Under the pieces are notes generated by a model, which was not told where the DNA came from, did not search any database, and worked only from the letters and a program-made list of their open reading frames with translations. A DNA stretch of 64,000 nucleotides from Oligoflexia bacterium (GTDB taxonomy: Bacteria > Bdellovibrionota > UBA1018): assembly GCA_963758495.1 (NCBI GenBank), contig CAVWVI010000003.1, positions 256,001 through 320,000 of the forward strand, written 5' to 3'. Every line of letters begins with the position of its first letter. Within the stretch, counting starts at the first letter, position 1. Made by a program: the position numbers and the translations under genes. Below, in pieces: positions 39,396 through 55,668 of this stretch.

Positions 39396-40925
39396 TCACT
39401 TGCTTGAGTCATATGCGTCCCCATCGTCTAGAGGCCTAGGACATCGCCCTTTCACGGCGGTAACCGGGGTTCGAATCCCCGTGGGGACGCCAAAAAAATT
39501 GCTTAAAGAAACGCTCAAGGTATTAATATCTTGAGCTTTTTTTTCGCCTTGTGGGTCAATTGAATTAATTAATACATCTCTCTTCAAGGGCCTGCGGGGC
39601 ATATGCGGGACAAGAGCCCCTTTTTCCAAAGTTATTGTCGCAGGAGCTGCAATCTTGTTGTTTGGTTCTGATCGTTGTTGCGAACTTCGATAGGAGGCAG
39701 CAGACCTATTTAGAGATAGGATTGCCTGAAGAGCTGCGGCCTTAACCTGCTCTTCTGAAGACTCCCCCAATTTTGATATGACTTCTTGAACAAGCTTTGC
39801 CATTTTTTGAACGTCCGTACTTTCATCTTTCTCCGAACTTTTAAGATTGTCAAAAGCAAAGTCATCGCAAAGCCTCAAATCACCGTCTAAAAGATGTGTA
39901 TAGACCCGCGACGTAATACTAATGTCAGAATGACCTAAGATCACCGATATCTTCTTAATTCCCCAACCTTGGCGGATTTTATTACTAGCGAAGCTATGTC
40001 TTAATGTGTGCAAGTCGATACGCTGTTCCAGCCCAGCTTCCTTTGCAGCCACCTTAAGAGGCTTGAGCAGATAACGATCATTGTAGCGTTTGCCATTCTT
40101 TTTCGTGAAAATGAATGTCGCTTTGCGGGTTAGTTCGTGAAGAGCTTCCCAAGCACCCTCATCGAGAGGCACTCTTCGCTCCCTTCCGTTTTTACTAGTA
40201 GCAATGTAGATAAAATCGCCGTTACCATCGATGTCGCTCCAACGGAGGTTGAGAGCCTCACCCCTTCTCAAGCCTGTATGTGCAAGAAACTTCACGAAAG
40301 GATAGAGAAGAGCGCAATTGGACTTCTTTGAGGCTGCAAAGAGCCTTTCCAATTCTTCAGGTATTAAAAAATTGATTTTGCGCGTTGGAGCCTGCCGGGG
40401 AAAATACTTTTTGAAGTCTCTCATCCGTCGAATTGGATTTTCTCCATTGGACTCGACCTCAGCATAACAATCACCCAGGGACGCCATCAGTGCATGATAC
40501 TTTTGCAGCGTTGCGTGAGAAATCTCTCGATCCTTCAATTCTAAGTAAAATTTAAATAAAGTTTCTCTTTTCAAATCCTTGAATTTTAGTTTTCCTAATT
40601 TAGGAACGACGTCCTTCCTTAGACGTCGCCGTGTTTCATTTTGCCAATGAGGTTTGGCAGTCAAGAACTTCACACTTTTTAAGAAGAGATGCGAAATCTC
40701 CTCTACGTTCCGATTGAGAGTTTTCTCAGGAGTCTTAGGCTGGGGATCTAGTCCCAAAGCCAAATCACGACGAACCTCTGCTTCAAGCAGTTTAGCTTCA
40801 TTCTCAGTTCTCCCTGCTGCACGCTTGATCCACTGCCCCGTCTTTGGGTCCTTCCAGCGTACGATCCAGGTGACGTTTCCACTCCGGTGCTTCTTAGCAA
40901 AGATATTGGTGAAAAGTTGATTCAT
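39396..40925 (-). CDS. int: Tyrosine integrase with long C-terminal extension overlapping tRNA-Glu antisense
   Basis: TGLRRGE, SKNG, HTLRH, LGHS, VYTH; N-terminal arm-binding-like WIVRWKD; ATG 40925 with AGGGG RBS. Confidence 0.93.
   Translation of the reverse strand: MNQLFTNIFAKKHRSGNVTWIVRWKDPKTGQWIKRAAGRTENEAKLLEAEVRRDLALGLDPQPKTPEKTLNRNVEEISHLFLKSVKFLTAKPHWQNETRRRLRKDVVPKLGKLKFKDLKRETLFKFYLELKDREISHATLQKYHALMASLGDCYAEVESNGENPIRRMRDFKKYFPRQAPTRKINFLIPEELERLFAASKKSNCALLYPFVKFLAHTGLRRGEALNLRWSDIDGNGDFIYIATSKNGRERRVPLDEGAWEALHELTRKATFIFTKKNGKRYNDRYLLKPLKVAAKEAGLEQRIDLHTLRHSFASNKIRQGWGIKKISVILGHSDISITSRVYTHLLDGDLRLCDDFAFDNLKSSEKDESTDVQKMAKLVQEVISKLGESSEEQVKAAALQAILSLNRSAASYRSSQQRSEPNNKIAAPATITLEKGALVPHMPRRPLKRDVLINSIDPQGEKKAQDINTLSVSLSNFFGVPTGIRTPVTAVKGRCPRPLDDGDAYDSSK
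39417..39492 (+). tRNA. tRNA-Glu (anticodon UUC); ICE integration site
   Basis: GTCCCCA/TGGGGAC acceptor stem, loop CT-TTC-AC, TTCGAAT, CCA. Confidence 0.97.
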
Positions 40926-40936
40926 TGCAATTACCC

Positions 40937-41176
40937 CTAAGCCGACGCCCACCCATTACTTTGTTCTTGAGCTAACCAACGAACAAACTCTTTCTTTGGA
41001 AATCGAACCTCACGACCCACTGCAATTCTTGGAGGTCGCCGTTTGGGTTCTGATCTCTTAGCCCAATTATAAACAGTCCGACGATCACACTCCAAGAAAT
41101 TACAGATCTCATCCAACGTAAGAAGGCCTTTTTCAGGATACAATCGATTCACTTCTTCTAGCAATGTTTCAAACAT
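40937..41176 (-). CDS. xis: Excisionase-like HTH protein
   Basis: LLTLDEICNFLECDRRTVYNW...VGREVRF; directly upstream of int. Confidence 0.85.
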   Translation of the reverse strand: MFETLLEEVNRLYPEKGLLTLDEICNFLECDRRTVYNWAKRSEPKRRPPRIAVGREVRFPKKEFVRWLAQEQSNGWASA

Positions 41177-41188
41177 ACTCAGCCCCCA

Positions 41189-42700
41189 TTATTCCATCAC
41201 GATTGTTTCAGATTTCATAAAATCGACGAATGTTCTTGCAGGTGTTTTCTCGGCAACACCTGGAAACGCAAATCGTGCTCGATACCACGTAGAGTCGGCA
41301 GATAGTTTCAGGACTACTGGTCCACTTGAGGTTCCGACAGTGACTGGTGTTGTGGACTTCGTCACCGACCAGAATTCTTTGTTTGGGTAATGCCAACCAT
41401 TTCCCGGTTCAGGACTGTGACAAAACCGTCGATCATCCCAAGGTGAAGTTCCATTGGATAGCTCCCATTCTGCACACTGATTCATTGCGTTTTCGTCGGG
41501 ATGAGGCTGCTCAGGAAGAATCCTGTAAACTCGAATACTGTTGCAGGCTCGAGATGCTCCTGGCCAGCCTTTCTGCTGCCAGTAGTTTGTAGCCTTACCT
41601 ATGCCGTCCCAATCGTACATGTCGGTTCTAGGATTGCCACAACGACTTCGACAGCCACTAACGGCATCCACAGTGCTAAAACGTTGAACCGCATGCCCCT
41701 CTTTCAACAGCGCCACGGCTTTGGGTCCGTATGCGTAGATGCCAATCATTTTTTGTTCTCCCGGCTCCAAAGTCACTCCCCAATTCCCGACAGCAAAAGC
41801 TTCATTGATTGAGTTTGAAAAGGTCCTCGGCGTGTCATCTGAAAGTGGAATTGCAACCAGTTCAGATGCAAACTCCTCCTCCCAGTCTTGTCGAGCAATT
41901 GAGTGCCCACAAAAGCTCTGAGTCAAATTAAGACGAGTCATTGAACTACTGAGGCGACCATTCATTCTCACTGGAATTTCTACCACCAGAGGCCATTGTG
42001 AATCGTTTCGAATTGGGACGAATTGCACCAAAGCAAGCTGAACACCTACAGAATTTAGGAACTTCAGCTTTTGGGCAGCAGGGCTAAACTTTTCATCAAA
42101 AGCAGATACAGCCTTTTGGTCTTTACTGACTTTTGAAGGTGGAGTCATGATATTCAAGCTCACTGTTTCTAAGGGTGTTTTGTCAGTTTCACCGAAAAAA
42201 TGAATTTGAACCAATGCAAGACTCTCGCCTGTAGTAGAAAGCAATTTCGAAAACCCAAATGCAGAAAACTGGATTGAGCCTCCATCGAGACTGTCGTTAC
42301 TTTCTTTTACTTCGAGGTTGTAGGGAATCCCGCTCTCAGGTCCTACCCACCCTTGAACCGTTACACGTTTGACGAGGTCTCGCTGAGTGGAAGGCCTGAT
42401 TTCAAAATGAACTTCATCAGGAGCAGAATGAGGAACAATAATGGGCCGATCCAATGCCAGACTAGATAATGTCCCAGCTGGCTCTACCGAAACCGGCTCG
42501 CTCATCGAATTGTCTTCGAGCTTCCATGACATTTTGAGACTGCTACGCTTCATCACTGCTGCTTTTGGTGGATTATTTGGGCCGGTCTGTTCGCTTAGGT
42601 CCGGAGTTGGAGCAGGCTGACCTCCTCCTTCCGGTGATCGAAAAGCGCATCCTGCGATGCTTAATGCTAAAACCATTGTTGTTACTGACTGATATTTCAT
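41189..42700 (-). CDS. Cys-rich lipoprotein of the ICE
   Basis: Lipobox IAGC; several Cys in the C-terminal part; lies within the tra operon. Confidence 0.75.
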   Translation of the reverse strand: MKYQSVTTMVLALSIAGCAFRSPEGGGQPAPTPDLSEQTGPNNPPKAAVMKRSSLKMSWKLEDNSMSEPVSVEPAGTLSSLALDRPIIVPHSAPDEVHFEIRPSTQRDLVKRVTVQGWVGPESGIPYNLEVKESNDSLDGGSIQFSAFGFSKLLSTTGESLALVQIHFFGETDKTPLETVSLNIMTPPSKVSKDQKAVSAFDEKFSPAAQKLKFLNSVGVQLALVQFVPIRNDSQWPLVVEIPVRMNGRLSSSMTRLNLTQSFCGHSIARQDWEEEFASELVAIPLSDDTPRTFSNSINEAFAVGNWGVTLEPGEQKMIGIYAYGPKAVALLKEGHAVQRFSTVDAVSGCRSRCGNPRTDMYDWDGIGKATNYWQQKGWPGASRACNSIRVYRILPEQPHPDENAMNQCAEWELSNGTSPWDDRRFCHSPEPGNGWHYPNKEFWSVTKSTTPVTVGTSSGPVVLKLSADSTWYRARFAFPGVAEKTPARTFVDFMKSETIVME

Positions 42701-42722
42701 ATTTCCCCCTGGATTACTTCTT

Positions 42723-44264
42723 TCAGGACCCAGAAATAGAGGTCCATTTGTCGCTGCTGTCGTTTACATTCAGATGTGATTTTTTTGGCTCTCCCTGAGC
42801 TTTGCCTGATTGCTCCCCTAAAAATGCCGGTGCAATTTCAGTTGGATTCAGAGGTTTCTCTTCTTTCCTGCCAATTCCCCTTTGCTCGGTCTTATGAGCA
42901 ACAGGCATCGAGTTCTTTTGGATTGGACGAGCTGTTTTGAAAGGAATTCGGAGTACACGTGTTTGTCCTTCAGTCTTCATACTGAAAACGCATTCGCCTA
43001 CCCTCAGAGACTTGATTCGATCGGGTGGAATAATAAATTCCTGCACCTCTCGATTCGATGAATCTCCCGTTCTAAACCCGTCGTGAGTACTGTAGGTTTG
43101 CTTCACGGTTTTTCGAGTGCCAATAAAGCGGGACCACCGTTCAGCATCATCGGGGTCATCCTGGCGAAAGATAAATCGTACATTGCAATTGCCTAAAATT
43201 TGGCCCGTAAATTCGGGACTCACCGTATTCAAATCAGAAAGAGTTTGGTGCGCCAGGTGAATCATGAATTCACTGGAACGCCCTTTATTTAGAAACGTTG
43301 AAAAACTTTCAGTAGCAAAAGCATCAAACTCATCAATATAAACGCTAAATGGACGATCACTCTTAAGAGAAGCATTCCGTTTTCTCATTCCTGAAATCAA
43401 AATGATCTCTTGAGTGAGAAGTCGACCGATACGACTACTCTGGACCTTCTTGCCCTCAGTAGGAAGGTCAACGAAGAGAATTTTATTTTGAGTGACGACA
43501 TCCAGTAGAGAGATCTCTCTGCTCGGGTCAATTTCATTCTTCTTCCCGCAAGCCAGAACCTTTTCCCATTCACCGTAAACCAGGTTATTTAGGTCAAAGA
43601 ATAGGCCTTTCAGTGTCTCATTCTTGTCATCTTCACTGATAGACTCGAGTTCTCGCAAAAGGTCACGAATGGTAAATCCATTTTGATTGGATGTAGTGAG
43701 GTGGCGAAATGCCTGAAGGAGTCCAAACTCACATGCTTTTGCATAGTGAGGTTCGCTATAGACAGCAGAGTTGAAAAACTTGGTTTGAAGTTCAGAGGCA
43801 TTCCCTAATCCACAGGGGTTCCAAATTGAACTCTCTTCAGGAAAGGTAGCCGAAAGAAGAAAGAGGTCCTGCTCCCTTCCAATGGATTGACAATAGGCCC
43901 GTACAGACTCGTAAAAACCACGTTCTCCCTTTGGATCAATGACGACGGCACCATATCCCCGTTCAAGATCTGCAAAGAGGAGCTTTTCGACAAGAACCGT
44001 TTTTCCAGTACCGGTTGCACCAACAATGTGAGTATGACGAAGACGTGCCGTGTCTCCAATCCATTCTGAGCCAATTCGAATTCCATATTTTGGTTTTCTT
44101 CTCAGGCGAAAACAGAACTTATCCCAGAACCAATTGATCACTTGTGGCTGGAGCAATGTTAAGAAGGTAACAGTAACTCCAACACTCCCCAATAGGAGCA
44201 GTTGCTCATGAGTGAATTGCTGAAAGAAACCTGACGAATGATGGAGCACCATTGTCTTTTTCAT
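42723..44264 (-). CDS. virD4: Type IV coupling protein (VirD4/TraD-like)
   Basis: N-terminal TM, HTHIVGATGTGKT, IDPKG, YIDEF, GRSS..HQTLSDL, ILGNCN. Confidence 0.88.
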   Translation of the reverse strand: MKKTMVLHHSSGFFQQFTHEQLLLLGSVGVTVTFLTLLQPQVINWFWDKFCFRLRRKPKYGIRIGSEWIGDTARLRHTHIVGATGTGKTVLVEKLLFADLERGYGAVVIDPKGERGFYESVRAYCQSIGREQDLFLLSATFPEESSIWNPCGLGNASELQTKFFNSAVYSEPHYAKACEFGLLQAFRHLTTSNQNGFTIRDLLRELESISEDDKNETLKGLFFDLNNLVYGEWEKVLACGKKNEIDPSREISLLDVVTQNKILFVDLPTEGKKVQSSRIGRLLTQEIILISGMRKRNASLKSDRPFSVYIDEFDAFATESFSTFLNKGRSSEFMIHLAHQTLSDLNTVSPEFTGQILGNCNVRFIFRQDDPDDAERWSRFIGTRKTVKQTYSTHDGFRTGDSSNREVQEFIIPPDRIKSLRVGECVFSMKTEGQTRVLRIPFKTARPIQKNSMPVAHKTEQRGIGRKEEKPLNPTEIAPAFLGEQSGKAQGEPKKSHLNVNDSSDKWTSISGS

Positions 44265-44950
44265 TGATAGTCTCGGCGATCAAAGAGTCGAACTTCCCCT
44301 CGTTGAGTCCAAACTGGAGGGATTGACGATTTTAGACAGTTCCAATGAACAACACCCATAGGCTGTTCCTTTGGACCAGAAGGAAGATACTTCTTTATCG
44401 ATTCGAAAAGTGTGTCTTGCGTTGCAACGTAAAGGACAAAAATAATTCCTGGAATGTCCTTCCATCGATTCATAAGATGAATAAAACGCGATCGACCTTT
44501 GTCCGAGTTTTCTACTTCAATCGCAATGCCTTTTCCTGATTTGAAGAAAAACAATCCATCTGGAATCTGACGATACTCTTTACCCTTAATTGCACGCTCG
44601 CAAACGAAATGAGCATCCCAGCATTCCTCTAACCGTTGACGCACTGACGTCACAATTGAGTCATGAACTAAGGTTGCGAGTTGGAGATTTCTGACCGGTG
44701 TATGGGGAGTCGCTCCACTTTCAAGGGCAACTCCTGCTCCCGTTCGTGTGGTTCGATAAATGGGTTTTCGACCTAAAGTTGATGTAAGTTCTTCAAATAG
44801 AAAGTTCCCTTTAACCAACTCTTGCACCCTCATTCTACAAGCTCTGTAAGATGCATTTGGAAAAAACTTCTCAACATGCTCCGTCAAAAGAAATTGTTGT
44901 TCGTAACAGAGCTTCAGAATTCTCCTATCTCTGTCCTGAAGAATGATCAT
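44261..44950 (-). CDS. Replication-relaxation-type protein (wHTH + PD-(D/E)XK), probable relaxase
   Basis: LQDRDRRIL N-terminal HTH; HD; IPDG...AIEVENSDK; translationally coupled to the coupling protein. Confidence 0.75.
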   Translation of the reverse strand: MIILQDRDRRILKLCYEQQFLLTEHVEKFFPNASYRACRMRVQELVKGNFLFEELTSTLGRKPIYRTTRTGAGVALESGATPHTPVRNLQLATLVHDSIVTSVRQRLEECWDAHFVCERAIKGKEYRQIPDGLFFFKSGKGIAIEVENSDKGRSRFIHLMNRWKDIPGIIFVLYVATQDTLFESIKKYLPSGPKEQPMGVVHWNCLKSSIPPVWTQRGEVRLFDRRDYQ

Positions 44951-45015
44951 GCTGGTCCCCTCTTTGTTTTTAGGTTTTTGTTTTTCTTTGTTTCCAGTCC
45001 CCTGTCTCCTCCCCC

Positions 45016-45187
45016 CATGAACTCCCGGCCCGCACTTTGGATCTTGGATCTAGACTTTGGATATCGCTTTGATTTGCCGACCCCGCTCACTCGTCGTTGA
45101 GTGGGTGGGGTCGGCAAATGCGCCAGCAAGAAGCGATTATCTAAAGACCTGGATCTAAAGAGGAAAGGTGCGGGCCGGGAGTTCATG
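45016..45187 (+). other. 172-nt rod-like hairpin (candidate oriT, single-strand origin or antisense RNA)
   Basis: Perfect 20-bp outer stem catgaactcccggcccgcac/gtgcgggccgggagttcatg plus nested stems with G-T pairs only on the + strand. Confidence 0.8.
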
Positions 45188-45199
45188 CTGAAGTTCATC

Positions 45200-45715
45200 T
45201 CAATTCTTCGCATCATGAACCCCTGACTGAATTGGCTTTGCGAAGAGTTCGCCGGAACGTTTTACTCTGTATGCCTTGTGCGGTTCGTGAAGAGTGCCGT
45301 CTTCTGAGACAGAATCCTCTTCAATGAATTCCTCAATGACGAGGGGTTGAATTCGTTCCCTTACAAACTTCGGAAGTTGCTGGTTAGGCGTAACTTGGAA
45401 CTCACGCAGAGATCTATCGAGACTCTCTTGAGCTTTAAGATCGCCCTGGGATTTTGGAACCTCTGGTTTGGAGTCGGTAAGAAGTGCAGCAACACCTCCT
45501 AGTAGTGCACCGCTTAAACCGAACACCAAAGTATTCAACATCCTGCTTTCTTGGTTGGGAGAGAATACTGCCCCTCCTGCTGCACCCAACCCCGCTCCAA
45601 GTCCAGTCCCCAAGAGAAATCGTTTTCTTCCGGTGAGACTGGCACATCCTGAAGTCGATAGAACTGCCAAGAGACTCCACACGATATAGATGACGGTTTT
45701 GCGTCGGAATTTCAT
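45200..45715 (-). CDS. T4SS lipoprotein, TraV-like, with Gly zipper
   Basis: Lipobox TSGC; C-terminal EDGTLHEPHKAY resembles the TraV D-G-x-LH-x-P motif. Confidence 0.6.
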   Translation of the reverse strand: MKFRRKTVIYIVWSLLAVLSTSGCASLTGRKRFLLGTGLGAGLGAAGGAVFSPNQESRMLNTLVFGLSGALLGGVAALLTDSKPEVPKSQGDLKAQESLDRSLREFQVTPNQQLPKFVRERIQPLVIEEFIEEDSVSEDGTLHEPHKAYRVKRSGELFAKPIQSGVHDAKN

Positions 45716-46488
45716 CAGAAGCGAACCTCCTCTTGGACGAGCACAGTGAGAGCGGTCTGACTTTCAACAACAAGGATTGGCTTTTCAGCAGTTGCTTCCT
45801 CGATAAGTCTTTTGCCCTGATCTGCAGCCGTTTGTGCGACCCCCTGCAACAGAGCATTCCTTCCTGTAGGCTGCGGAGTGGAAAATCCAAGTGCATTTGT
45901 ATTTTGAGTTTGTTGAGAAGCAGCAAACCCAGAAATAAAACTAGACGCCATTGCTCCAGCAACAGCTACAGCCTTACCGCTAAATACTTGAGCCTCAAGT
46001 CCATAGGCTCCACTAGTGTCTAGGCCAGTGCTTTGAATACCTACTGCCTTGCCGGTCCTTAGAAGGAGTTTATTAAACTCTAAAGTGAGGCGTCCTTCGG
46101 TTCCAGCCTGACGCGCTAATCCCATGAGCTTAAGATCTGAAAGTGCTCCCTGGCCAGAATCCAATACGATCAAAATGGGAGAACCATCGGGACCCACGAC
46201 AAGACGAGTGAGAGTCTTTCCATAGAGAAGCTTTCCAGTAGGAATTTTCACTGTGCTAAAATCCGAGTGCACTTGGAATAAGGGTTTTTGGTTGGCCTCG
46301 CTGTTTTGAGTAGGTGAAAGGGAGGCCGGATTGCTGTCAGCAAATCCCACGTTAAGGCCAAACTTTCGCATCAGAACATCGGTTTCCTTTTGTTGATTTC
46401 GAAGACCGATAGTTCGTCGCTGGTACTCGGCATCAGTCATTGCCAGAGCAGGGATACTGAAAAAAAGAACAATCGCTGTCTTTCTCAT
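45715..46488 (-). CDS. VirB10/TrbI-like protein (short)
   Basis: KIPTGKLLYG, RLTLEFNKL, GLDTSGAYGL, KPILVV pattern of the TrbI C-terminal domain. Confidence 0.7.
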   Translation of the reverse strand: MRKTAIVLFFSIPALAMTDAEYQRRTIGLRNQQKETDVLMRKFGLNVGFADSNPASLSPTQNSEANQKPLFQVHSDFSTVKIPTGKLLYGKTLTRLVVGPDGSPILIVLDSGQGALSDLKLMGLARQAGTEGRLTLEFNKLLLRTGKAVGIQSTGLDTSGAYGLEAQVFSGKAVAVAGAMASSFISGFAASQQTQNTNALGFSTPQPTGRNALLQGVAQTAADQGKRLIEEATAEKPILVVESQTALTVLVQEEVRF

Positions 46489-46823
46489 TCCAAATCTCCT
46501 TTTGCTCGGTATTCCAAGTCCGATGCTCTTGGTGATTCTGAAGAGGGAGCAATTGCAATCACTCGTCGAACCGTTCCGGTGCTTGTCTCCAAAATCAGGT
46601 TAGTCCTTGCAGATCCGGAAAGAGGTTTTAGTAAGACTCCGCATCCCAGCTCCTTGGGGAGAGACTCAAGGCGAACTAAAGCGTCATTTCCAATAGCAGA
46701 GACAAATAACCGGCCTTCGCAGCGAACCTTCGTGATGAAGCCGGGATAAAGCTTGAGAACCTCTTCTGCGCTGACAGAACTCGATATAAAAAGCGTGATT
46801 AGGCCCAAAACAAATCGTTTCAT
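46485..46823 (-). CDS. Small exported T4SS protein (VirB9/TraK N-domain-like)
   Basis: Signal peptide; LKP...TNLILET motif; position between the VirB6- and VirB10-like genes. Confidence 0.5.
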   Translation of the reverse strand: MKRFVLGLITLFISSSVSAEEVLKLYPGFITKVRCEGRLFVSAIGNDALVRLESLPKELGCGVLLKPLSGSARTNLILETSTGTVRRVIAIAPSSESPRASDLEYRAKGDLE

Positions 46824-47611
46824 TCTGCTTGTACCGGACCTTTCTTGAAATTTAGGATTCGTCTGACACTTCGAAATAGACTCGCCTGAGAATCGAGGTC
46901 CCCTGAAAACGCTCCAGAGAGAAACTTATGAGTCATGGCTGGAATCATTAGAATGAGAATAATGGCAAGAAGTTCTACTGCAACGACGTACAGTCCCCAG
47001 CTTCCGGCCTTCAACATTTCTTTTCTGGCCACGAGAGCGGTCGTAACCTCCACTGCTGACAGCATTGGAAACCAAAGAGCTAATTCGATGGCATAAAGTG
47101 ACATGTGGTTAAACATTTGAGGAGCAACAGGATACACACCGCAGGCAATGGGAAATAAGAAGAGCAGTAATGTCCAAAATACATCTCTCGCGCTCTCCAG
47201 CAAGAAGGATGCGATTAGGAATACCCAGTCTACGACTGCGCACATCACCCCCCAAACGCCGGTTCTCCAGGCCTGTTCTAATACGGCAGGCAAATTGAAC
47301 GACGTGGAGGTTCCTGACGGTCCTGGTTCCCCAGAAGCCTTTTGAAACGCATTGAGAATGATTGCTCGCAGATCCTCCTGATGCCCAAGCCTAGAAATGA
47401 CAGTCGATAGTCCTTCTGAGAGAATCAATAGCTGAGAAGCCGCTGACTTGAAAAAAATCAGAGCAATACAACCGATTGCCATCCGCTCAAAAGAAAGATG
47501 CAAGTCAAACGAGCCTCGCATTGATCTGACTAAACAAAACCCAAACGACGCACCTAAAAGTAATCTGCCAGAAGGAATCAATATATCTGGCGTAACAGAT
47601 TCAGTGATCAT
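46820..47611 (-). CDS. VirB6-like polytopic membrane protein
   Basis: About 5 TM helices, LFPIA, ELALWFP; operon position. Confidence 0.6.
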   Translation of the reverse strand: MITESVTPDILIPSGRLLLGASFGFCLVRSMRGSFDLHLSFERMAIGCIALIFFKSAASQLLILSEGLSTVISRLGHQEDLRAIILNAFQKASGEPGPSGTSTSFNLPAVLEQAWRTGVWGVMCAVVDWVFLIASFLLESARDVFWTLLLFLFPIACGVYPVAPQMFNHMSLYAIELALWFPMLSAVEVTTALVARKEMLKAGSWGLYVVAVELLAIILILMIPAMTHKFLSGAFSGDLDSQASLFRSVRRILNFKKGPVQAE

Positions 47612-48318
47612 CGGTTGCTCCCCATTCGGCCTTTGCGAGAAGCAACCGTGAGTTGTCGCTCGTAGAGAACTCGACGCATTTTTGATTCTTGAAGGTCTTT
47701 CGAGACTTGGCTCTTTTGAAACTCCAAAGACATGGCTTGAAGTTGGACTAATTCCGACATGGTTTGGAGTTGTACGCCGGTGGCAAGCATTTGAGCCGAA
47801 GAGCTAGCTGCAGTAATTTGACTCGCTCTTCCAGGAGTTGCTGTTTTTGACTCCTCAGACAGCTTTGTGCCAGTTATCACCATTTCCTGTCCCATTTTGT
47901 AAGCAGTGTCCCCTTGTATAGCGCTACTGGTGATCGCTTGGTCAGCTAGTGACACTTTCACTGCCATCAGATCGTCAATCTGCTCTTTTGTTCGTTGGGC
48001 TCGAGAAATAAGATCGTTCAAGTCAGATAGACTTCGAATTGAAGTAGGATCGAGGCCCTGACTTCTCTCTATTATGGATTGAATATTATAGATTTGGTTA
48101 ACCGCTCGATCCACGCCCTCATTTAAGTCTTTCAATGTATTGATTTGATCCTTGGCAACCCCAATATTCTCCGTAAGTCTTTCGATCTCGGTGATTTGAC
48201 CCGACACCAGCTGAATAAGTGGGACCATTTCAGATCCAAAAAATGCATGGGCAGTTGGACAGGACAGTAAGGAACTAGAAAGGACCACAAAGGAAATCCC
48301 TAGGAAGGAGAAACGCAT
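47608..48318 (-). CDS. VirB5/TrbJ-like exported helical protein
   Basis: Signal peptide ending AHA, Gln-rich helices; follows virB4. Confidence 0.6.
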   Translation of the reverse strand: MRFSFLGISFVVLSSSLLSCPTAHAFFGSEMVPLIQLVSGQITEIERLTENIGVAKDQINTLKDLNEGVDRAVNQIYNIQSIIERSQGLDPTSIRSLSDLNDLISRAQRTKEQIDDLMAVKVSLADQAITSSAIQGDTAYKMGQEMVITGTKLSEESKTATPGRASQITAASSSAQMLATGVQLQTMSELVQLQAMSLEFQKSQVSKDLQESKMRRVLYERQLTVASRKGRMGSNR

Positions 48319-50144
48319 CGTTGGCTCCTTTCCAAAAGCTGATTCTTTCGGATCTCGGCTATTAGCTCTTCTCGAAGATTGTCAGTCCTGAGCAAAGCAT
48401 GTTCTACGTCAGTAGGATAAAGCCTCCCAAAACGAGACAGGAATGGAGTCTTAATGAGACATTCCGAGAAGACTCCTTTTTTCTGACGAAGAGATCTAAC
48501 CTTAGTCAACTCTACTGAATTTAAGCCGAGAATTCCCTGATACTGTTCCAGATCCTCTCCCTGTCGAAGAAGGATTCGAATAGGTGCGTTTTGAAAAATA
48601 CTCTGTCCACTTTGGTCAGTGAGAAAATCAGATAAACTTTGTGTAACCGCGATCGCCGCTCCGTTCAATTTGCGAAATTCACGAAATGCTCTTTGAACTA
48701 AAAGCGGTTCATCTCTCATGAAATTCCAACACTCATCTAGGACAACATAGACAGGATGAGTGGAGTCTCGTGATCTTAAAAACGCTTCTAACTGGCCTAA
48801 AATCGTTTGGATACCCATCTTTTTATCGTTCTGATCAAGATCCGAAAGTTCAATTCCGGCCATTCCACCGACACTATTGAGATGACTGAAAACACAGGCA
48901 GTTGAAGCCTGGAGTTCATTTAATTTCTTAGGTTCTTCATATCCCTGCCCAAATGCACGAACTAGACGTCGAAAACTTCTATTATGATCAATGAAAAGAA
49001 CGCTCATCGGAACTCTGGCTTCGATCATTCTCTTCAGTACCAAACCAGTAAAGAAACTCTTTCCACTTCCAGAAGCGCCTACTACAAGCCAGTGGAGAGC
49101 CTCTAACCTCGAATCGTTGGGTGAAAAGTAGAGAGGCTTTTTACGGACGGTTGTCAGAATAGATGCACCTGGCTCGACTGGATCATTCAGATTTGGAATC
49201 AAATCACATGCAGTTACTGCACGAACCAGATGGGTACGATGAAGCCTGTGTCTCAAACCCAGCGTAGCGCAAACAGCCAAATCAGCTCGCTTCTCGTGAC
49301 AAAACATCGAATGGTCTAGGTCCAACTTCGAAGGTGAAATGAGGATAAGGGAGATTTCTACTAGCGTTTCATCTCCGCGAGATAGACCCTGAAGAACTGC
49401 GCTTGAATCTTCAAAAGCAACCTCTGCATCAATATCTGAGATGACAGAATCGCCTCTGGCATTGTTGCGTCGGGAAATTTCAATTTGACGTTTAACTGAC
49501 TGAAAGCTTACTCCTCGAACAGTTACGACTACTGTAACCGGCACATCAATTCTTTTTAGAATTGAAAAAAGAAACAGCGGGTCGGTTTGAACGGGGATCT
49601 GATAGAGAGAATAGACTTGTTCCTGACCTGTATAGATTCCTCGAGTTATTTCTGAAAAGTCGAGTTTTCCTGCAAGACTAAATCGCCCTGAGCAGCCAAT
49701 TTCATAGCCTTCTGCACCTTTATCGCTCATTTCGCAGACAATTGTGTAACGTTCATTTTCGTTGAGACTGACAATTCGTTCAAGGAGAGCTTCCTTGGAT
49801 GCAATCAATTCTCTCTCATCAAGAGTGTCTGGAGGTTGAATGTCGAACGGAGTTTCCAGGAACTCGGATCGACCATTTGGATTTTTAATCCTAACCCTTC
49901 GCTCGATTGGCCAAATAAGAGACTCTTCCCAACCTGTCTTTGCGAACTGGCTCGTCACCCTAAGAATGACGTAGCCTGATGCTCCCACTGCTAAGGAAAT
50001 AAGGTCTCCATAGCGAACTCCTCCGAGAGCTACTGACATCCCTAAAACTAGGCTTGCTAGTCCAATTAAACCAAAGAGTGGAACTCCGAATATCAGCGGC
50101 CTTCTTAAAAGATTCCTGGCTGTGGGCTCGCAGTAAACTCTCAT
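48300..50144 (-). CDS. virB4: VirB3-VirB4 fusion ATPase (compact, 614 aa)
   Basis: N-terminal RRPLIFGVP plus 2 TM (VirB3-like); GASGSGKS, LDECW, REFRKLNGA..VTQS. Confidence 0.82.
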   Translation of the reverse strand: MRVYCEPTARNLLRRPLIFGVPLFGLIGLASLVLGMSVALGGVRYGDLISLAVGASGYVILRVTSQFAKTGWEESLIWPIERRVRIKNPNGRSEFLETPFDIQPPDTLDERELIASKEALLERIVSLNENERYTIVCEMSDKGAEGYEIGCSGRFSLAGKLDFSEITRGIYTGQEQVYSLYQIPVQTDPLFLFSILKRIDVPVTVVVTVRGVSFQSVKRQIEISRRNNARGDSVISDIDAEVAFEDSSAVLQGLSRGDETLVEISLILISPSKLDLDHSMFCHEKRADLAVCATLGLRHRLHRTHLVRAVTACDLIPNLNDPVEPGASILTTVRKKPLYFSPNDSRLEALHWLVVGASGSGKSFFTGLVLKRMIEARVPMSVLFIDHNRSFRRLVRAFGQGYEEPKKLNELQASTACVFSHLNSVGGMAGIELSDLDQNDKKMGIQTILGQLEAFLRSRDSTHPVYVVLDECWNFMRDEPLLVQRAFREFRKLNGAAIAVTQSLSDFLTDQSGQSIFQNAPIRILLRQGEDLEQYQGILGLNSVELTKVRSLRQKKGVFSECLIKTPFLSRFGRLYPTDVEHALLRTDNLREELIAEIRKNQLLERSQRCVSPS

Positions 50145-50145
50145 G

Positions 50146-50412
50146 TTATCGCACCTGACTGGAAATGAAGTTCCAAACTCCGGTCAAACCAAGTAGACAA
50201 GCAATTGCGACAACAACTCGAACTGTCTCATTCTTTGCATTCGGATCGCCTTGAATATGTGCAAAGATATTCTTTCCGAGATATCCCACAGCTACGATTG
50301 GGAGAAGCCTGCCCGTAAAGGCTTTTACCAAGTTATTCAGAGTTCCTTCAAGGTCTGCCGCAAACGCAACCTCTGGCACTAGGAGACTTAAGAGCAAGAG
50401 AGGTTCATTCAT
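50146..50412 (-). CDS. VirB2/TrbC-like pilin
   Basis: ATG 50412 with GGAG RBS; PEVAFA-A signal peptide then two hydrophobic helices. Confidence 0.75.
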   Translation of the reverse strand: MNEPLLLLSLLVPEVAFAADLEGTLNNLVKAFTGRLLPIVAVGYLGKNIFAHIQGDPNAKNETVRVVVAIACLLGLTGVWNFISSQVR

Positions 50413-50554
50413 TGCTCCAGCTTTCCGAACGAACCTACCTAAAGTTTTTTCTTTATGTGTTGCTTTCAAACCGGCCTCCTTCCGATATGCATCCAAATTC
50501 TGCGACCGCAAGACATCTCTTTTTGCGACGCACTAACAAATCGCGGCGAGTATG

Positions 50555-50570
50555 AGCATGAAGAATGCCA
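50555..50570 (-). promoter_or_regulatory. sigma54 (-24/-12) promoter of the tra-xis-int operon
   Basis: TGGCATTCTTCATGCT = GG-N10-GC; IHF-like site at 50586-50598; UAS-like palindrome gtcacatttctgagac at 50678-50693. Confidence 0.7.
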
Positions 50571-50718: not shown

Positions 50719-52218
50719 GTGAAACAAGAATTCAAGATATTGTTAGTTGAGGATCAGGAGAGCTTTAGAGAGGCTGTCATTCAACTTCTTGGGGTGTACA
50801 ACGAAGTTCACGGAGTAAAGAACCTAGCTGAAGCAAGAGACATCCTACAAAAGCGATCCTTTGAGGTCGTTATCTTAGACAAGAATTTACCTGATGGAGA
50901 TGGATTTCACCTCATCTCTGAAATTAAAGAAGAAAATCCAAACTCCGTAGTGATTGTTCTTACGTCCAACAGCGATTTCAGTAACGTGAAAAAATGTATC
51001 GCACTGGGTGCAGATGACTATGTCGTAAAGAGTGGAAATATTATTCCAGAACTCCTGATTCGGATTCCAATTGCAGTCTCCAGAGCGGCAAATGACCGGC
51101 AGCTCACCCATTTGAACAATCAAATCAAAAAGGCCTTTAAATATGAGTTGGTTGGAAAATCAAAAGCTGCAACTGAACTTCGACTATCCATCCTAAGCCT
51201 TAAGGGCACACCTTCGACAGTTCTTATTACGGGGGAAAGTGGAACAGGAAAAGAAGTGATTGCTCGCCGATTGCATGCGATCGAAGATGACAGCAAGAAT
51301 CGTCCTTTTATTGCATTGAACTGTGGCTCTATCCCAGAGAACCTCATCGAGAGCGAACTCTTTGGGCATAAAAAAGGCTCATTTACTGGAGCACATGCTG
51401 ATCAAGTTGGAAAGTTTGAATTGGCTCACGGAGGAGATCTTTTTCTAGATGAAGTAGGAGAACTCTCCCTTACAGCACAGATTAAGCTTCTTAGAGTTCT
51501 TCAGGACCAACAGTTCTATCGAATTGGCGGAATCAAACCTATTCAAGTCTCATGTAGAGTCATCGCCGCGACCAATCAGGATCTAGAGGAATTAATTCGA
51601 CAGAAGAAGTTCCGATCCGACCTGTTTTATCGTCTCAACGTTTTGAAATTTCATGCTCCACCACTTAGGTCTCGGCAAGAGGATATTCCAGACCTTGTCC
51701 AATTTTTTCTACTTCAAATTGGCGCACCCTTCATGACTTTGACCGACAAAGCTTATAGCAAGCTGGCCGAACATGACTGGCCTGGAAACATCCGAGAGCT
51801 TGGGAACATAATAGAACGCGGAGTCATTTCAGCTAGAAAGAAGAAATCTAACCGTATTGATCATGAAGACCTCACTATCGATCGATCTCTTGAAGGGAGG
51901 GAAGCCGGAGGTCGTAGAATTGAAATGGCTCTTCCAAGTGACTTTGGAGACCTGTCTGAGCAGGGCTATAGAGAATACCTAGAGCTAGCTGAACGTGAGT
52001 ATCTCAAGAAGGCTTTGTCTATTCACAATGGAAATGTCGCAAATGCTGCATCTGCAATTGGAATGTCGAGAAGCAATCTTTTTCGGAAAATTTCCCAGCT
52101 TGGAATTTCAAAAAAGACTGAGGATGAGTCCCTGACTATAAATAACAGCAATACTTTACATCCCCTCACCTCCAAATATCGCCACGATCAACACTTGGAT
52201 ACAGCAGAGGCAAGATAA
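50719..52218 (+). CDS. sigma54-dependent response regulator (NtrC-type bEBP)
   Basis: REC domain, GESGTGKE, ESELFGH, GSFTGA, LFLDEVGE, WPGNIREL, Fis-type HTH. Confidence 0.95.
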   Translation: MKQEFKILLVEDQESFREAVIQLLGVYNEVHGVKNLAEARDILQKRSFEVVILDKNLPDGDGFHLISEIKEENPNSVVIVLTSNSDFSNVKKCIALGADDYVVKSGNIIPELLIRIPIAVSRAANDRQLTHLNNQIKKAFKYELVGKSKAATELRLSILSLKGTPSTVLITGESGTGKEVIARRLHAIEDDSKNRPFIALNCGSIPENLIESELFGHKKGSFTGAHADQVGKFELAHGGDLFLDEVGELSLTAQIKLLRVLQDQQFYRIGGIKPIQVSCRVIAATNQDLEELIRQKKFRSDLFYRLNVLKFHAPPLRSRQEDIPDLVQFFLLQIGAPFMTLTDKAYSKLAEHDWPGNIRELGNIIERGVISARKKKSNRIDHEDLTIDRSLEGREAGGRRIEMALPSDFGDLSEQGYREYLELAEREYLKKALSIHNGNVANAASAIGMSRSNLFRKISQLGISKKTEDESLTINNSNTLHPLTSKYRHDQHLDTAEAR

Positions 52219-52220: not shown

Positions 52221-52964
52221 ATGTCGAGCAATAATCAGAATCTCGTTGGAAAAGTAGCTCTCGTTACAGGAGCAAATAGAGGAATTGGACTTGAGGTGTG
52301 TAGACAGCTCGCTCAAAAAGGTGCCCGAGTTATCCTCACCAGTCGCGACGAAAGGAAAGGTCAGGAAGCAAAGACCTTGCTTACCAAATCAGGGCTAAAT
52401 GTTGATTTTTGGGTATTGGATGTCCAAAACGATGAGAGCGTTCGTCATGCAAGAGAGTACGTAGAGGGAGCTTTTGGAAGGCTGGATATTCTAATCAACA
52501 ACGCAGGTATTTTGCCTGATAACACAACACCAGGCATATTCTCTGATCGAAGTATTTTAGAAACAGACTTCGATGATATTCTTGCAGCGTTCCAGACCAA
52601 CTCTCTAGGCGTCGTCCGTGTTTGTCGTGAATTTGTACCTCTTATGAAAAAAGGTGGTTCAGGTCGGATCGTTAACGTTTCGAGCATGATCGCACAGCTT
52701 GCAACCATGGACAGCGGCAGCCCTGCATACCGGATTTCAAAAGTTGCACTGAACGCGATTACACGCATCCTCGCGGACGAACTCAAAGATCATCATATTC
52801 TATGTAACTGCGTTAGCCCTGGTTGGGTCAAGACTGATATGGGTGGTCCCAATGCCAATATTCCTGTGGACCAAGGAGCAGCTGGAATTGTAGACCTTGC
52901 ATGCCTACCCGACGGTGGAGCAACTGGGCAGTTCTTTCGAAATGGGCAGGTCATTGAATGGTGA
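52221..52964 (+). CDS. SDR oxidoreductase (carbonyl-reductase type)
   Basis: TGANRGIG, NNAG, YRISK, PGWVKTDMGG. Confidence 0.93.
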   Translation: MSSNNQNLVGKVALVTGANRGIGLEVCRQLAQKGARVILTSRDERKGQEAKTLLTKSGLNVDFWVLDVQNDESVRHAREYVEGAFGRLDILINNAGILPDNTTPGIFSDRSILETDFDDILAAFQTNSLGVVRVCREFVPLMKKGGSGRIVNVSSMIAQLATMDSGSPAYRISKVALNAITRILADELKDHHILCNCVSPGWVKTDMGGPNANIPVDQGAAGIVDLACLPDGGATGQFFRNGQVIEW

Positions 52965-54895
52965 CCATCAATTTTGTTCGAAACAGACAGCTTGGAAGTG
53001 TAATTCTATTTGGGATTTTTCTGGTTTCGGCCTTTATCATTCCCTTTTACGTCAATGACATTTGTCGCTGGATCAGTCTTTCCACTGATAGGTCTGGGTT
53101 TATCGTTGCCGTACATGAAGCCATTTGCTCGGCACTCTCATTTTCTTGGCTGTTATACATTCGAAAGAAATCTGAAAGGCAGCAGAGTTGGGAAAAATAT
53201 TTTCCTTTAGTATTCATCTGCCTTTCCTTTGCTGACCTTGCATATGGGGTTCACTATTACTTTCTAAATCACGTATTCAAGAACACACCAGGATTCTTGA
53301 TTCACCAGATCCCATATATTTTAGTAATGTACTTTCTCTCTCATGTCACGATCATGAGGAGCTTTGAAAACACGAAAAAAAAGAAGGAAAAATACCTCAT
53401 TGGTGGTGCAATTGCTGCTATAGCAGCCATCTATTTCGCCTGTTCCTACAAGATGGTTCTTAGCTATCATTTTCCTGCAGGGTACCAGCGTCCTACAGCC
53501 AATTTTATTACCTCCTACATATACGGCATCCTGCAGTCTATCTCGATGGGCGGGCTTGTAGTCGCAAGTCTTAGGACTCCTGGACTCGCAGAGTTTTTTC
53601 AATGGTTCCTTTTTGTAACCATGAATGGAAGCGATTTCGCCCTGAGATACCAGGACGTAGGTGCTCACAAGCTAGGTACCCCCATGTTTGAATATGGTTG
53701 GGAAATAGCTGTTGCCGGAATCAGCGCACTTATTCTCTTTCGAAGATTGGGTTTAGGTCAAACTGACAAGCTCATGAATGAAATGCCAACTCCAGTGAAT
53801 AGCATTCGAGTTCTAGCTCCACTTTCCACCCTATCGATACTCGCACTCTTTGTTGTTCTAAACTTGGTATCTGCTCCCTATTTTGAAATTGCCAATATTA
53901 ATACCATCAGTGGACATACACTGATTTTCGCCTTTGTGTGGCTAACGGCAAACGGAATGGGACTTTATCTTAGTCAGATTCTTTCCGATCGAATTAGAAA
54001 GCTTAATCTTCAAATTGAATCAGCTCAATCTTTGGAAGACTTGGATAAATTGCGCGGAAATCTCGTCGAAATGAACCCAGTGTTTCAGTCCCTTAAGCAG
54101 ATGAAAATTCAGTTGAGTCATTCAATGGAAGAGAATCTGAAAGCAAGATCCTTAGCCGCTGTTGCATCCACAGCGTCAAGAGTAGTGCATAATATTCGTT
54201 CTCCCCTTTCTGCCTTGGAGATGGGACTGAGTATTGTCCCCGATATGCCTGCTAATGCCGATTCGATTATTAGAAAGTCTCTTGGAGAAATCAAAAGCTT
54301 CGTTAAGGACTTGGAAGCTCAGTCGCGTAAATTCAAAATGGAGGATCATAACCTCGGAAACACCAAAGATATTCGGCCCAAGACAGTGGAGCAGATTTCT
54401 AAGCTGGTAGAACTCTCAGTTGCTCAAAAGAAGATTGAACTTCACCAAAGGTCCGAGATTCAGATAATTTTAGAGATTAATGAGAACGCACGCTCTCTTT
54501 ATTCCGAATTGGACTCCCTAGAATTTTCCACCATCATTTCTAATTTAGTCAACAACGCAGTCGATGAAATGCAGGCCGGCGGCCAAGTTAAAGTTCTTCT
54601 TTCGAGAGACGGCAATTTCGGCGTCTTACAAGTTGTCGACAACGGGAAAGGCATCGCTGCCGAACTCCTACCCAACCTTGGAACCCTAGGATTCACCCAT
54701 GGCAAAAAGCATGGAACTGGGCGAGGCCTTCATGATGCGAAGAAAGCCATAGAAGCTTGGGATGGGCGTATCTCCTTCCATTCAGAACTAGGTAAGGGGG
54801 TGTGCGTTTCAATCCAGTTGCCCGATTTAAACTACCACTTATGTAACCAACCAATGAGCCCATTTCTTAAACCCAACCCATATTGCAGGAATTAA
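52958..54895 (+). CDS. Multi-TM sensor histidine kinase
   Basis: About 9-10 TM helices; H-box VHNIRSPL; NLVNNA, DNGKG, GTGRGL. Confidence 0.9.
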   Translation: MVTINFVRNRQLGSVILFGIFLVSAFIIPFYVNDICRWISLSTDRSGFIVAVHEAICSALSFSWLLYIRKKSERQQSWEKYFPLVFICLSFADLAYGVHYYFLNHVFKNTPGFLIHQIPYILVMYFLSHVTIMRSFENTKKKKEKYLIGGAIAAIAAIYFACSYKMVLSYHFPAGYQRPTANFITSYIYGILQSISMGGLVVASLRTPGLAEFFQWFLFVTMNGSDFALRYQDVGAHKLGTPMFEYGWEIAVAGISALILFRRLGLGQTDKLMNEMPTPVNSIRVLAPLSTLSILALFVVLNLVSAPYFEIANINTISGHTLIFAFVWLTANGMGLYLSQILSDRIRKLNLQIESAQSLEDLDKLRGNLVEMNPVFQSLKQMKIQLSHSMEENLKARSLAAVASTASRVVHNIRSPLSALEMGLSIVPDMPANADSIIRKSLGEIKSFVKDLEAQSRKFKMEDHNLGNTKDIRPKTVEQISKLVELSVAQKKIELHQRSEIQIILEINENARSLYSELDSLEFSTIISNLVNNAVDEMQAGGQVKVLLSRDGNFGVLQVVDNGKGIAAELLPNLGTLGFTHGKKHGTGRGLHDAKKAIEAWDGRISFHSELGKGVCVSIQLPDLNYHLCNQPMSPFLKPNPYCRN

Positions 54896-55414
54896 AATCA
54901 GAATAATTGCAAAAATTGACATTCTCGCTGGAAATAAGGGGTAACAATCTGGTCCCCAAATTTTCCGACCATAGTTTTGACAAAGTAAACCCAGTCCATT
55001 TATTTTTAAGATCATATTTGAATCTTCACTGTATGGAATTTCGAACCAATCATCAGGGTTAAGTTCACTCAATTTCATTGGCTCGGAGAGGCTTTTAGTG
55101 GGTTTCTTGCTCTCGTTATGCCGCGCATATGCACTGAAGTTGCATTTATCATCCGAAGACTCCGTAGGATCACCACTTCCTCCAGGATTTTTTCCTTGAG
55201 AAATTCGCATTTCTCTATCTGTCAGTTTACAGTATGGGCCTTCTTCTAACTTCTTCCAGGTTACTTTGATCTCATCAGGAAGCTCCGAGAAAACAACTAC
55301 ATCATGAAGAAATATGACCGACAAGCAGGCAAGCCCACCAATACTTATTGTAATTAGTATAATTTTAATAGTTAAGTATAACTTATTAATAATTCTATTT
55401 AATTTAATTTCCAC
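54839..55414 (-). CDS. Hypothetical protein with two TM helices
   Basis: 191-aa ORF, hydrophobic at both ends. Confidence 0.55.
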   Translation of the reverse strand: MEIKLNRIINKLYLTIKIILITISIGGLACLSVIFLHDVVVFSELPDEIKVTWKKLEEGPYCKLTDREMRISQGKNPGGSGDPTESSDDKCNFSAYARHNESKKPTKSLSEPMKLSELNPDDWFEIPYSEDSNMILKINGLGLLCQNYGRKIWGPDCYPLFPARMSIFAIILILIPAIWVGFKKWAHWLVT

Positions 55415-55668
55415 TACACTATTGTCCTATATAAATAGAAGTGTGTGAACTACATTAGAAGTATTTTAAGACAGCACAAAAACCTAACAAATACTTACCT
55501 TTTATTTGGATTTGACTCAAATCAGGCTCAACTATACCGCGAGGTGTTTGTGACACTGCCAAAACAGTAACCTAGGAAACTGCCAATTAAAGAAATGTGT
55601 GGATCCAGGAGGCGGTTGGGTATTTGTAATCTAGTTCCGAAATATGCATCAAAAAATAACTTCAGTTA

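Follow-up and report, generated by a model that had tools for sequence, protein, structure and literature searches.

The window analysed here is a stretch of 64,000 nucleotides (nt) from an Oligoflexia bacterium of the Bdellovibrionota (assembly GCA_963758495.1, contig CAVWVI010000003.1, positions 256,001 to 320,000 of the forward strand; genome G000, contig C3 in our set). It contains an operon of twelve minus-strand open reading frames (ORFs) for a small type IV secretion system (T4SS), a relaxase, a coupling protein, a lipoprotein, an excisionase and an integrase (Table 1). The original prediction, made from the sequence of the window, had described this ~11-kb operon as an integrative and conjugative element (ICE). 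The transfer and integration operon is indeed present, but the element is larger: the last 48 bp of the tRNA-Glu gene recur 31.5 kb away without a mismatch (48/48 in blastn), so we take the element to be a 31.5-kb ICE inserted in tRNA-Glu, with the right attachment (att) site outside the window and the 11-kb operon as its left third. As expected of an ICE, it has an integrase, direct repeats at both ends and a tRNA site, and VirB4, the coupling protein, the relaxase and the mating-pair genes all lie inside it. Two relatives have att repeats of their own (48/48 in G029, 47/48 in G005), and tRNA-Glu, -Pro or -Arg adjoins 6 of the 16 locus rows checked.

All twelve ORFs are intact and have the positions and lengths first assigned to them, including the 614, 263, 112 and 257 amino acids (aa) of VirB3/4, VirB6, VirB9 and VirB10. 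The tight coupling of the genes, with successive gaps of 1, -19, -4, -4, -4, -1, 249, -4, 22, 12 and -16 nt, suggests a single transcript from the pilin gene to int. The sole gap above 22 nt folds into a hairpin of ~170 nt, as had been noted, but it is not empty, since an 89-codon ORF overlaps both neighbours. Family scans directly support the pilin (weakly), VirB4, VirB10, the coupling protein, the excisionase and the integrase. The labels VirB5, VirB6 and TraV hold by position and by profile links to sister elements, not by a direct family match in this copy. Among the components by which a diderm T4SS is recognised, the VirB4 ATPase is present with intact Walker motifs, and homologues of VirB2, VirB3, VirB6 and VirB9 were found through weak or indirect matches.

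In related ICEs of the phylum that we call long-type, a TraE-like (VirB8) gene of 177-230 aa sits between virB6 and virB9. In this element virB6 directly abuts virB9, and a distance of only 5-143 nt separates the domains of VirB6 and VirB9 in 30/30 locus rows (~25 distinct). VirB8 profiles found nothing in genome G000 (best E 0.26-0.77), PF04335 and PF05309 gave no match there at E 1, and a profile of the long-type VirB8 matched neither the genome nor any short locus. Long-type profiles of VirB4, VirB5, VirB10, the TraV-like protein and the relaxase, used as a lineage-matched probe, all find the window's genes. Furthermore, VirB8 profiles had no match in three att-bounded elements, nor in 13 of the 26 genomes that carry the short system, with 3/3 positive controls detected; these VirB8-negative carriers include G000 (5 contigs) and G115 (9 contigs). 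None of the short-type protein profiles aligned with long-type VirB8 in hhalign (best 1.3%). Sequence and profile tests with controls, together with models of two folded proteins, thus revealed no bitopic VirB8/TraE protein of the kind that characterises diderm T4SSs.

VirB1 and VirB11 had been listed as missing along with VirB8. The VirB8, VirB11 and transglycosylase families have no match in the twelve genes or the 15 other element ORFs scanned, and none of the missing components turned up among these 27 ORFs (Pfam, NCBIfam), but only the lack of VirB8 is odd. VirB11 is commonly absent from F-like systems, and with an F-like VirB4 neither VirB1 nor VirB11 is expected. Elsewhere in the genome the VirB11 family has 12 sub-cut-off TIGR02788 matches, and at least two of the four inspected lie in Tad-like contexts. 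Guglielmini et al. (PMC4027160) describe VirB1 as restricted in distribution and non-essential, and VirB8 as having recognisable homologues in all diderm T4SS classes, which are often detectable solely by structure.

VirB10 differs as well. The long-type proteins have a tail of 23-40 residues followed by a full membrane helix (12/12). The VirB10 of the window has no cytoplasmic tail, membrane anchor or linker, and one helix precedes its barrel. Its hydrophobic run begins at residue 1-15 in 23/23 short-type proteins, compared with residue 24-41 in 12/12 long-type ones; the short-type run is brief and mostly ends in a small-residue, cleavage-like site. A signal-like start in place of tail and anchor was accordingly scored in 23/23 short-type and 0/12 long-type proteins. 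The count left out duplicates and four rows with an upstream ORF start (L022, L031, L032 and L053), which show the same signal-like segment after an internal Met. In diderm T4SSs VirB10 spans both membranes; here the barrel is present and the cytoplasmic tail and linker are not, and we predict that the short-type VirB10 is released from the inner membrane. PMC11294453 describes contacts of VirB10 with VirB4, VirB6 and VirB8 and its proposed function as a switch for pilus assembly; for R388 it reports that VirB10 residues 21-101 bind VirB4, VirB3, VirB6 and VirB8, and that residues 135-153 form a helix binding the VirB9 N-domain.

The 112-aa VirB9-like protein has no O-layer domain, and 3 of 10 members of its family match CagX (best 0.0019). 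The 171-aa lipoprotein has a lipobox and, by alignment, a conserved C-terminal motif; it has no TraV family match, and we take its C-terminus to resemble TraV. PDB sequence searches with the VirB9, TraV-like, VirB6 and VirB5 profiles and with the relaxase returned nothing informative. In four loci VirB6 and VirB9 are fused in frame with the internal signal-like segment kept (L015:12501-13601, L053:11796-12944, L054:367-1530 and L055:1558-2721), and these fusions could tether the periplasmic ring to the stalk.

The model of the VirB3/4 fusion (predicted local distance difference test, pLDDT, 92.5) matches TrwK at residues 16-803 (483 aligned positions) and 4ag5 at residues 209-588 (246 aligned positions). 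Its best NCBIfam model is TIGR02746 (TraC-F-type), matched far below the cut-off; long-type sisters reach 4e-88. The spacing between Walker A and B is 114-115 in short-type proteins (11/11 measurable copies), ~166 in a third, intermediate clade and 205-219 in the long type. Because this spacing is shortened, the ATPase insert appears to have lost ~100 residues; lengths point to a second large internal deletion of ~170-190 residues in the N-domain, ~290 in total. A fusion of ~600 aa is present in 15 of the 61 genomes searched, and 90 database proteins match it at E <1e-70. In R388, according to PMC9259494, the outer VirB4 is the only one bound by VirB8 tails, and the central VirB4 the only one bound by VirB3. 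The machine described here may contain either six or twelve copies of VirB4, with the VirB3 part of the fusion anchoring each copy. One of 20 members of the VirB5-like family matches the VirB5 model TIGR02791 (0.0018), and long-type VirB6 members match TrbL at 9e-5. Fusions of VirB3/4 to VirB5 (833-844 aa, with an internal signal-like segment) occur in L027:3345-5879, P0025, P0082 and, frameshifted, L022:6490-8673; these are possibly polyproteins cut by signal peptidase.

The short system is not peculiar to this copy. We found it in 26 of 127 genomes of the class, 25 by the VirB10 profile and G019 by VirB4, and the short VirB10 was absent outside the class among 401 genomes of the phylum. Within genera its occurrence is patchy (2/8, 1/3 and 1/2). 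The ratio of nonsynonymous to synonymous substitution rates (dN/dS) is 0.01-0.17 over eight genes between G122 and G009, and 0.06-0.15 over three genes between G126 and G124. Almost every locus long enough to cover the operon shares its gene order; L046 is rearranged. The original prediction of a reduced, unclassified conjugation system in the Bdellovibrionota is therefore borne out: the system is conserved, under purifying selection and accompanied by no VirB8 found elsewhere in the element or genome. Matches occur in 3,032 records of a plasmid database, but in none of them does the match cover >80% of the query. The top plasmid match, Myxococcus plasmid pYRE (L081, NZ_CP102771.1, 5887-16306), has a full-length VirB4 in a different layout; it is typed as non-mobilizable and encodes, besides a coupling protein and a VirB4-like ATPase, a series of hypothetical proteins of the sizes usual in a T4SS.

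Two sister clades, identified here and not found in the literature searched, place the short type in context. The long-type ICEs (L033-L039, L076-L080) share homologous VirB4, VirB5, VirB6, VirB10, TraV-like protein and relaxase; they have a separate VirB3, a VirB4 of ~815 aa, a TraE-like VirB8 and an anchored VirB10 of ~300 aa. Every protein of the short operon except the 503-aa lipoprotein has a separate long-type counterpart. The intermediate clade (family f22, L061-L073) has the same coupling protein and relaxase types as the short type and a signal-type VirB10 (11/11), together with a VirB4 of ~625 aa, a separate VirB3 and a VirB6 of ~450 aa. At the VirB8 position it encodes a 149-aa bitopic protein with a weak VirB8 match (hidden Markov model E 0.07-1). 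Its VirB9 seems to lack a clear signal peptide and to open with the CagX domain itself. Elements of this clade, for example L063:1900-15061, also have a ~630-aa gene before the pilin gene and a gene for a single-stranded DNA-binding protein. In the VirB4 tree each of the three clades forms one side of a well-supported branch; the tree was built in quick mode from 35 VirB4 rows with three coupling proteins as a long-branch outgroup, and it gives no clear root. Both sister clades also have xis-int at the end of the transfer operon, so this arrangement is a trait of the phylum's ICEs. At G044:C4:18400-40400 a short-type and a long-type element (L023/L024) lie head to head with adjacent integrases.

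The hairpin directly precedes the gene of a relaxase with the acidic motif of the MOB_C family, and the palindrome is therefore likely the origin of transfer (oriT) of this MOB_C-like enzyme. In the window it has a z score of -7.3, and 0 of 200 shuffles were as stable; it was present in 12/12 loci folded (z -4.4 to -10.2). Across 21 aligned sequences its core has 14 pairs, 8 of them with compensatory changes and none of them a wobble pair, a pattern consistent with a palindrome that acts as DNA and not as folded RNA. We considered a transcription terminator or a known RNA family and rejected both, there being no terminator-like site, no Rfam match and no wobble pair. The core pattern was not recognised in L019/L045, L047, L053 or L046, L019 having a variant stem, nor was it found in the 5/5 intermediate-clade genomes searched; the long-type L039 shares it and has a related coupling protein. 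Relatives of the relaxase match PF13814 at 4e-5 to 8e-4, and the D, ExE and K residues are conserved in 12/12 full-length rows, with the final RF/RY in most. The series D..ExE..K..R(Y/F) is the nuclease motif of MOB_C relaxases. A nuclease-type chemistry is described for MOB_C in PMC6736028. Across the gap the sense frame is open in 15 of 21 loci, compared with 2.3 expected and 6 for the antisense frame. Fourteen of these bridging frames start close to the upstream stop, 12 as a four-base overlap, and no detectable sequence is shared among loci. We infer that ribosomes cross the origin by translating the bridging ORFs and that the operon thereby stays coupled; this would support a single transcript, short of proof. 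Coupling proteins are FtsK-like in most long-type ICEs (L033-L038) and TraD-like in L039, L074-L075, L078 and L080, so coupling modules have been swapped.

The 503-aa lipoprotein has no Pfam or NCBIfam match, TraN included, and no match at >=0.9 in the ESM Atlas. Clustering at 50% identity divides its family into 206 clusters, a much greater variety than in VirB4, and the Cys-rich insert is its least conserved part (0.15 compared with 0.26-0.34 elsewhere). A fold search gave generic immunoglobulin (Ig) matches near background, with a top Z of 8.4 for the fimbrial CssA. By its model the protein is unlike VirB8. From position and shape, it is likely a mating-pair adhesin or exclusion protein that acts in recipient choice or exclusion.

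The int ORF was correctly predicted to end at 39396; its last ~17 codons are host DNA, read antisense through tRNA-Glu. In the excised circle the frame would stay open for 76 codons, compared with 19 when integrated (61 and 4 in G029). The att core also lies inside int in L019, L022, L025 and L056, as judged by tRNA overlap. Other copies carry a different integrase of ~410 aa, so the integrase module is exchangeable. Similarly, the Mx8 and SSV integrases have the att site in the 3' end of int and cross attP, as described in PMC4383910; unlike them, the integrase described here belongs to an ICE.

Beyond what was first predicted, the most telling features are a VirB10 with a signal-peptide-like start, a candidate oriT palindrome bridged by an ORF, an int gene that contains the att site and sister clades that keep VirB8. 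We consider it probable that the element is a self-transmissible, VirB8-less conjugation system with a released VirB10; it is likely a simpler DNA-moving machine than any described so far. In this model a single transcript would run from the pilin gene to int, with the bridging ORF carrying ribosomes across the oriT hairpin, and excision and transfer functions would appear together. The cut made by the relaxase would fall within the palindrome or close to it, and the coupling protein would then receive the strand. Pilin would be extracted by the VirB3/4 fusion ATPase, which has a membrane hairpin of its own as anchor, and placed on a stalk of VirB6 and VirB5. The outer-membrane ring would consist of the VirB10 barrel, the TraV-like lipoprotein and the VirB9 N-domain. 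Because the element has neither VirB8 arches nor those parts of VirB10 that in R388 bind VirB8, VirB6 and VirB4, this ring would be joined to the inner complex only via stalk and pilus. The variable lipoprotein would likely select or exclude recipients. A more far-reaching version, to which we give even chances, is that the system forms a distinct subclass that transfers DNA without VirB8 arches or a VirB10 bridge, with ring and ATPase-stalk joined by the pilus only, and that uses seven channel genes. It would form a natural reduction series with the two sister clades and pick its recipients by a new family of stalk-and-knob lipoproteins.

Several observations weigh against a self-transmissible machine without VirB8. 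VirB8-bearing elements occur in 13/26 carriers and 26/101 non-carriers (Fisher p 0.03, with kin that are not independent), and the VirB8-negative genomes are drafts, 83-97% complete. The intermediate clade pairs a signal-type VirB10 with a VirB8-like gene; the two losses are therefore not strictly tied, and VirB10 release does not require VirB8 loss. The quick VirB4 tree gives no branching order among the three clades. Cleavage of the VirB10 start was judged by a hydrophobicity heuristic rather than a trained predictor, and VirB5, VirB6 and TraV were assigned indirectly. Broken copies occur among the relatives: L022 has frameshifts and L056 an interrupted virB10. In L056 (1492-2997 and 5080-8136) virB10 is split by an opposite-strand 501-aa ORF, and coupling protein and lipoprotein form one 1,018-aa ORF.

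The excess of VirB8-bearing elements among carriers could mean that the element depends on a helper, making most of the channel itself and borrowing VirB8/TraE from a co-resident long-type ICE. SGI1, which reshapes the IncC channel, offers a parallel. The tandem of short and long elements in G044 and the oriT core and related coupling protein of the long-type L039 fit such an arrangement, which we nevertheless regard as unlikely. In half of the carriers, among them G000 and G115 with their 5 and 9 contigs, no VirB8 was detected; the VirB10 described here lacks the region by which its R388 counterpart binds VirB8; all other machine genes are retained under selection; and the excess may merely reflect hosts permissive to mobile DNA.

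The weak match of the intermediate 149-aa gene shows that VirB8 detection is near its limit here. The job of VirB8 might accordingly be done by an unrecognised part, such as a VirB6 domain, the lipoproteins, the VirB3 part of the fusion, a VirB10 start that stays uncleaved or a protein of the host, and the machine would then be less unusual than its gene list. The detection of many VirB8 homologues by structure only (PMC4027160) is consistent with this, and our structure models cover two proteins, neither of them VirB6, VirB5, VirB10 or the TraV-like protein. We nonetheless think a hidden substitute quite improbable: there is no space for a gene between virB6 and virB9, the operon proteins all have long-type counterparts except the lipoprotein with its Ig-like model, and no cargo membrane protein is common to the elements.

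The hypervariable, adhesin-like lipoprotein within the operon and cargo proteins of 2,600-2,700 aa in two relatives might suggest that the apparatus is mainly a surface appendage or protein exporter for adhesion or lipoprotein display, with DNA moving by another route; conservation of relaxase, coupling protein, palindrome, xis and int in the same operon makes this very unlikely. That the operon is a decayed remnant of an ordinary ICE, as the broken relatives might suggest, is already largely refuted and hardly credible, because 26/127 class genomes carry the short system at dN/dS values far below 1, ~90 proteins share the short VirB3/4 with its constant Walker spacing, and this copy is intact between identical att repeats.

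If it does work as the model proposes, a VirB8-less, VirB10-trimmed system would show which parts pilus building and DNA movement need, and would test whether VirB10 must bridge both membranes. The 9-kb operon is small enough for expression and imaging, and the three related clades allow each loss to be tested by swaps. The system is likely a main route of gene flow in a little-studied phylum, one that class-based annotation would score as incomplete.

Table 1. Features of the ICE and its surroundings (positions in the window).
Feature	Position	Strand	Evidence
Host tRNA-Glu(TTC), integration target	39417-39492	+	ARAGORN; Rfam RF00005
attL core, 48 bp	39445-39492	+	blastn 48/48 with attR; flanks compared
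Tyrosine integrase, 518 aa as integrated; ORF crosses att core	39396-40952	-	PF00589 1e-37
Excisionase-like helix-turn-helix (HTH) protein, 79 aa	40937-41176	-	HTH_17 7e-11; TIGR01764 above cut-off
Lipoprotein, 503 aa: two Ig-like domains, long beta stalk, hypervariable Cys-rich tip (predicted)	41189-42700	-	model pLDDT 89
Type IV coupling protein, 513 aa, VirD4/TraD-like	42723-44264	-	TrwB_AAD 3.5e-15; TraG-D_C 6e-15; SXT_TraD 1e-32
MOB_C-like relaxase, 229 aa, conserved PDG-x-ExEN-x2-K-x3-RF	44261-44950	-	NF041423 1.4e-7, below cut-off
Bridging ORF, 89 codons, across hairpin	44947-45216	-	overlaps TraV-like stop and relaxase start
Long inverted repeat, oriT candidate	45016-45187	-	conserved core 45077-45114 (GACCCCRCCC..C.C.AC ... 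GGGGTC)
TraV-like lipoprotein, 171 aa, glycine zipper; likely VirB7 role	45200-45715	-	hhalign 98.8% to long-type equivalent; alignment
VirB10/TraB, 257 aa: signal-peptide-like start, one helix, TrbI barrel	45715-46488	-	PF03743 7.7e-17
VirB9/TraK N-terminal domain only, 112 aa	46485-46823	-	Atlas TraK_N 0.93/0.91, CagX 0.89
VirB6-like polytopic protein, 263 aa, 5 hydrophobic segments	46820-47611	-	hhalign 83% to long-type VirB6
VirB5/TrbJ-like protein (weak assignment), 236 aa	47608-48318	-	hhalign 98.7% to long type
Fused VirB3/4, 614 aa, with intact Walker A (356) and B (470) and a pair of membrane helices at the N-terminus	48300-50144	-	TraC-F-type 9e-27
VirB2 pilin, 88 aa from ATG at 50412	50146-50412	-	PF04956 0.003; sister-clade pilin 5.8e-6
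Sigma-54-type -24/-12 site (GG-N10-GC), possible operon promoter	50556-50570	-	sequence
NtrC-like sigma-54 activator, divergent; possible regulator	50719-52218	+	Pfam; homologues adjoin two related elements
Cargo of the same ICE: short-chain dehydrogenase/reductase, HTH-tetratricopeptide repeat (TPR) protein, DUF6119, unknowns; runs on past the window to ParA gene, 499-aa partner and attR	52221-64000		
Histidine kinase, possible regulator	52958-54895		Pfam; homologues adjoin two related elements
attR, identical to attL; past the window end	70920-70967 (G000 C3:326920-326967)		blastn

The -24/-12 pattern upstream of the operon recurs in 3/17 loci, with 0.017 expected per window by chance; found in just these three, it does not support sigma-54 control as a family trait. 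Several cargo genes are possible defence candidates: a weak YhaV-like protein with a divergent 157-aa partner, possibly a toxin-antitoxin pair (55669-56927), the HTH-TPR protein (57005-59452), a DUF6119/TIGR04141 protein (60094-61761) and, from 63994 onward, a 737-aa protein in which DUF4379 zinc fingers are repeated five times and which has a weak nuclease match. PADLOC, run on 12 proteins, returned HTH and TPR fragments and nothing else. Next to attR lies the ParA gene (L001:14166-16506, window position 68165-70505), also seen in 5/7 related element regions. Positional counterparts of its downstream partner in four relatives have replication-initiator-like winged helices resembling phage replication protein O; given this pair, the ICE circle may replicate and partition. 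Just past attR, a group II intron reverse transcriptase (L001:17881-19194) adjoins a 483-aa transposase-like ORF, and a tRNA-Arg(TCG) gene lies 6.5 kb to the left of the element (32823-32899). Two complete short-type elements carry cargo ORFs of 2,728 aa (L083:6791-14977) and 2,648 aa (L085:1456-9402) next to repeat-protein fragments, possibly Rhs-like by appearance only.

Titles and the beginnings of abstracts that we searched hold no description of a VirB8-less system, though supplementary ICE tables could still list it. Among reduced T4SSs, PMC12857230 describes mycoplasma ICEs without VirB8 and VirB1; unlike the host described here, mycoplasmas have neither wall nor outer membrane. The Helicobacter ComB system is likewise reduced, but it retains VirB6-10 and imports DNA. 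With MOB_C systems such as CloDF13 MobC and pAD1 TraX the element shares a restriction-endonuclease-type acidic triad and a relaxase that adjoins the coupling protein; it differs in that the relaxase falls below the family cut-off and the origin is covered by a bridging ORF. A long inverted repeat at the origin is found in those systems as well.

With the F class of mating-pair formation (MPF) systems (MPF_F: F, IncC, SXT/R391), the likeness lies in a VirB4 whose best model, matched below the cut-off, is TraC-F-type, in a coupling protein closest to SXT TraD, in TraK_N-like and putative TraV-like proteins and in the absence of VirB11. The differences are the missing TraE, a VirB6 that is short where MPF_F has a large TraG, a pilin of the VirB2 family, a VirB5-like protein, a TraL-like part fused to VirB4 and the MOB_C-like relaxase; the markers TraW, TraU, TraF, TraH, TraN, TrbC and large TraG had no match among the 27 element ORFs (Pfam, NCBIfam). 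With MPF_T (R388 Trw, VirB/D4) the element shares the gene order B2-B3-B4-B5-B6-(B8)-B9-B10, and its VirB3/4 model matches TrwK from one end to the other; MPF_T also includes systems with such fusions (PMC4027160, PMC3548315). MPF_T is defined by the order virB2-3-4-8-9-10 with VirB11, of which virB8 and an in-element VirB11 were not found here; VirB1 is lacking too, VirB9 has no O-layer domain, VirB10 has no cytoplasmic, inner-membrane or arch segments, and VirB4 is ~290 residues shorter. Judged by its genes, the element fails the defining features of both MPF_F and MPF_T and is an ICE-like element that combines an F-related VirB4 with T-like pilin and stalk genes and a MOB_C-like relaxase.

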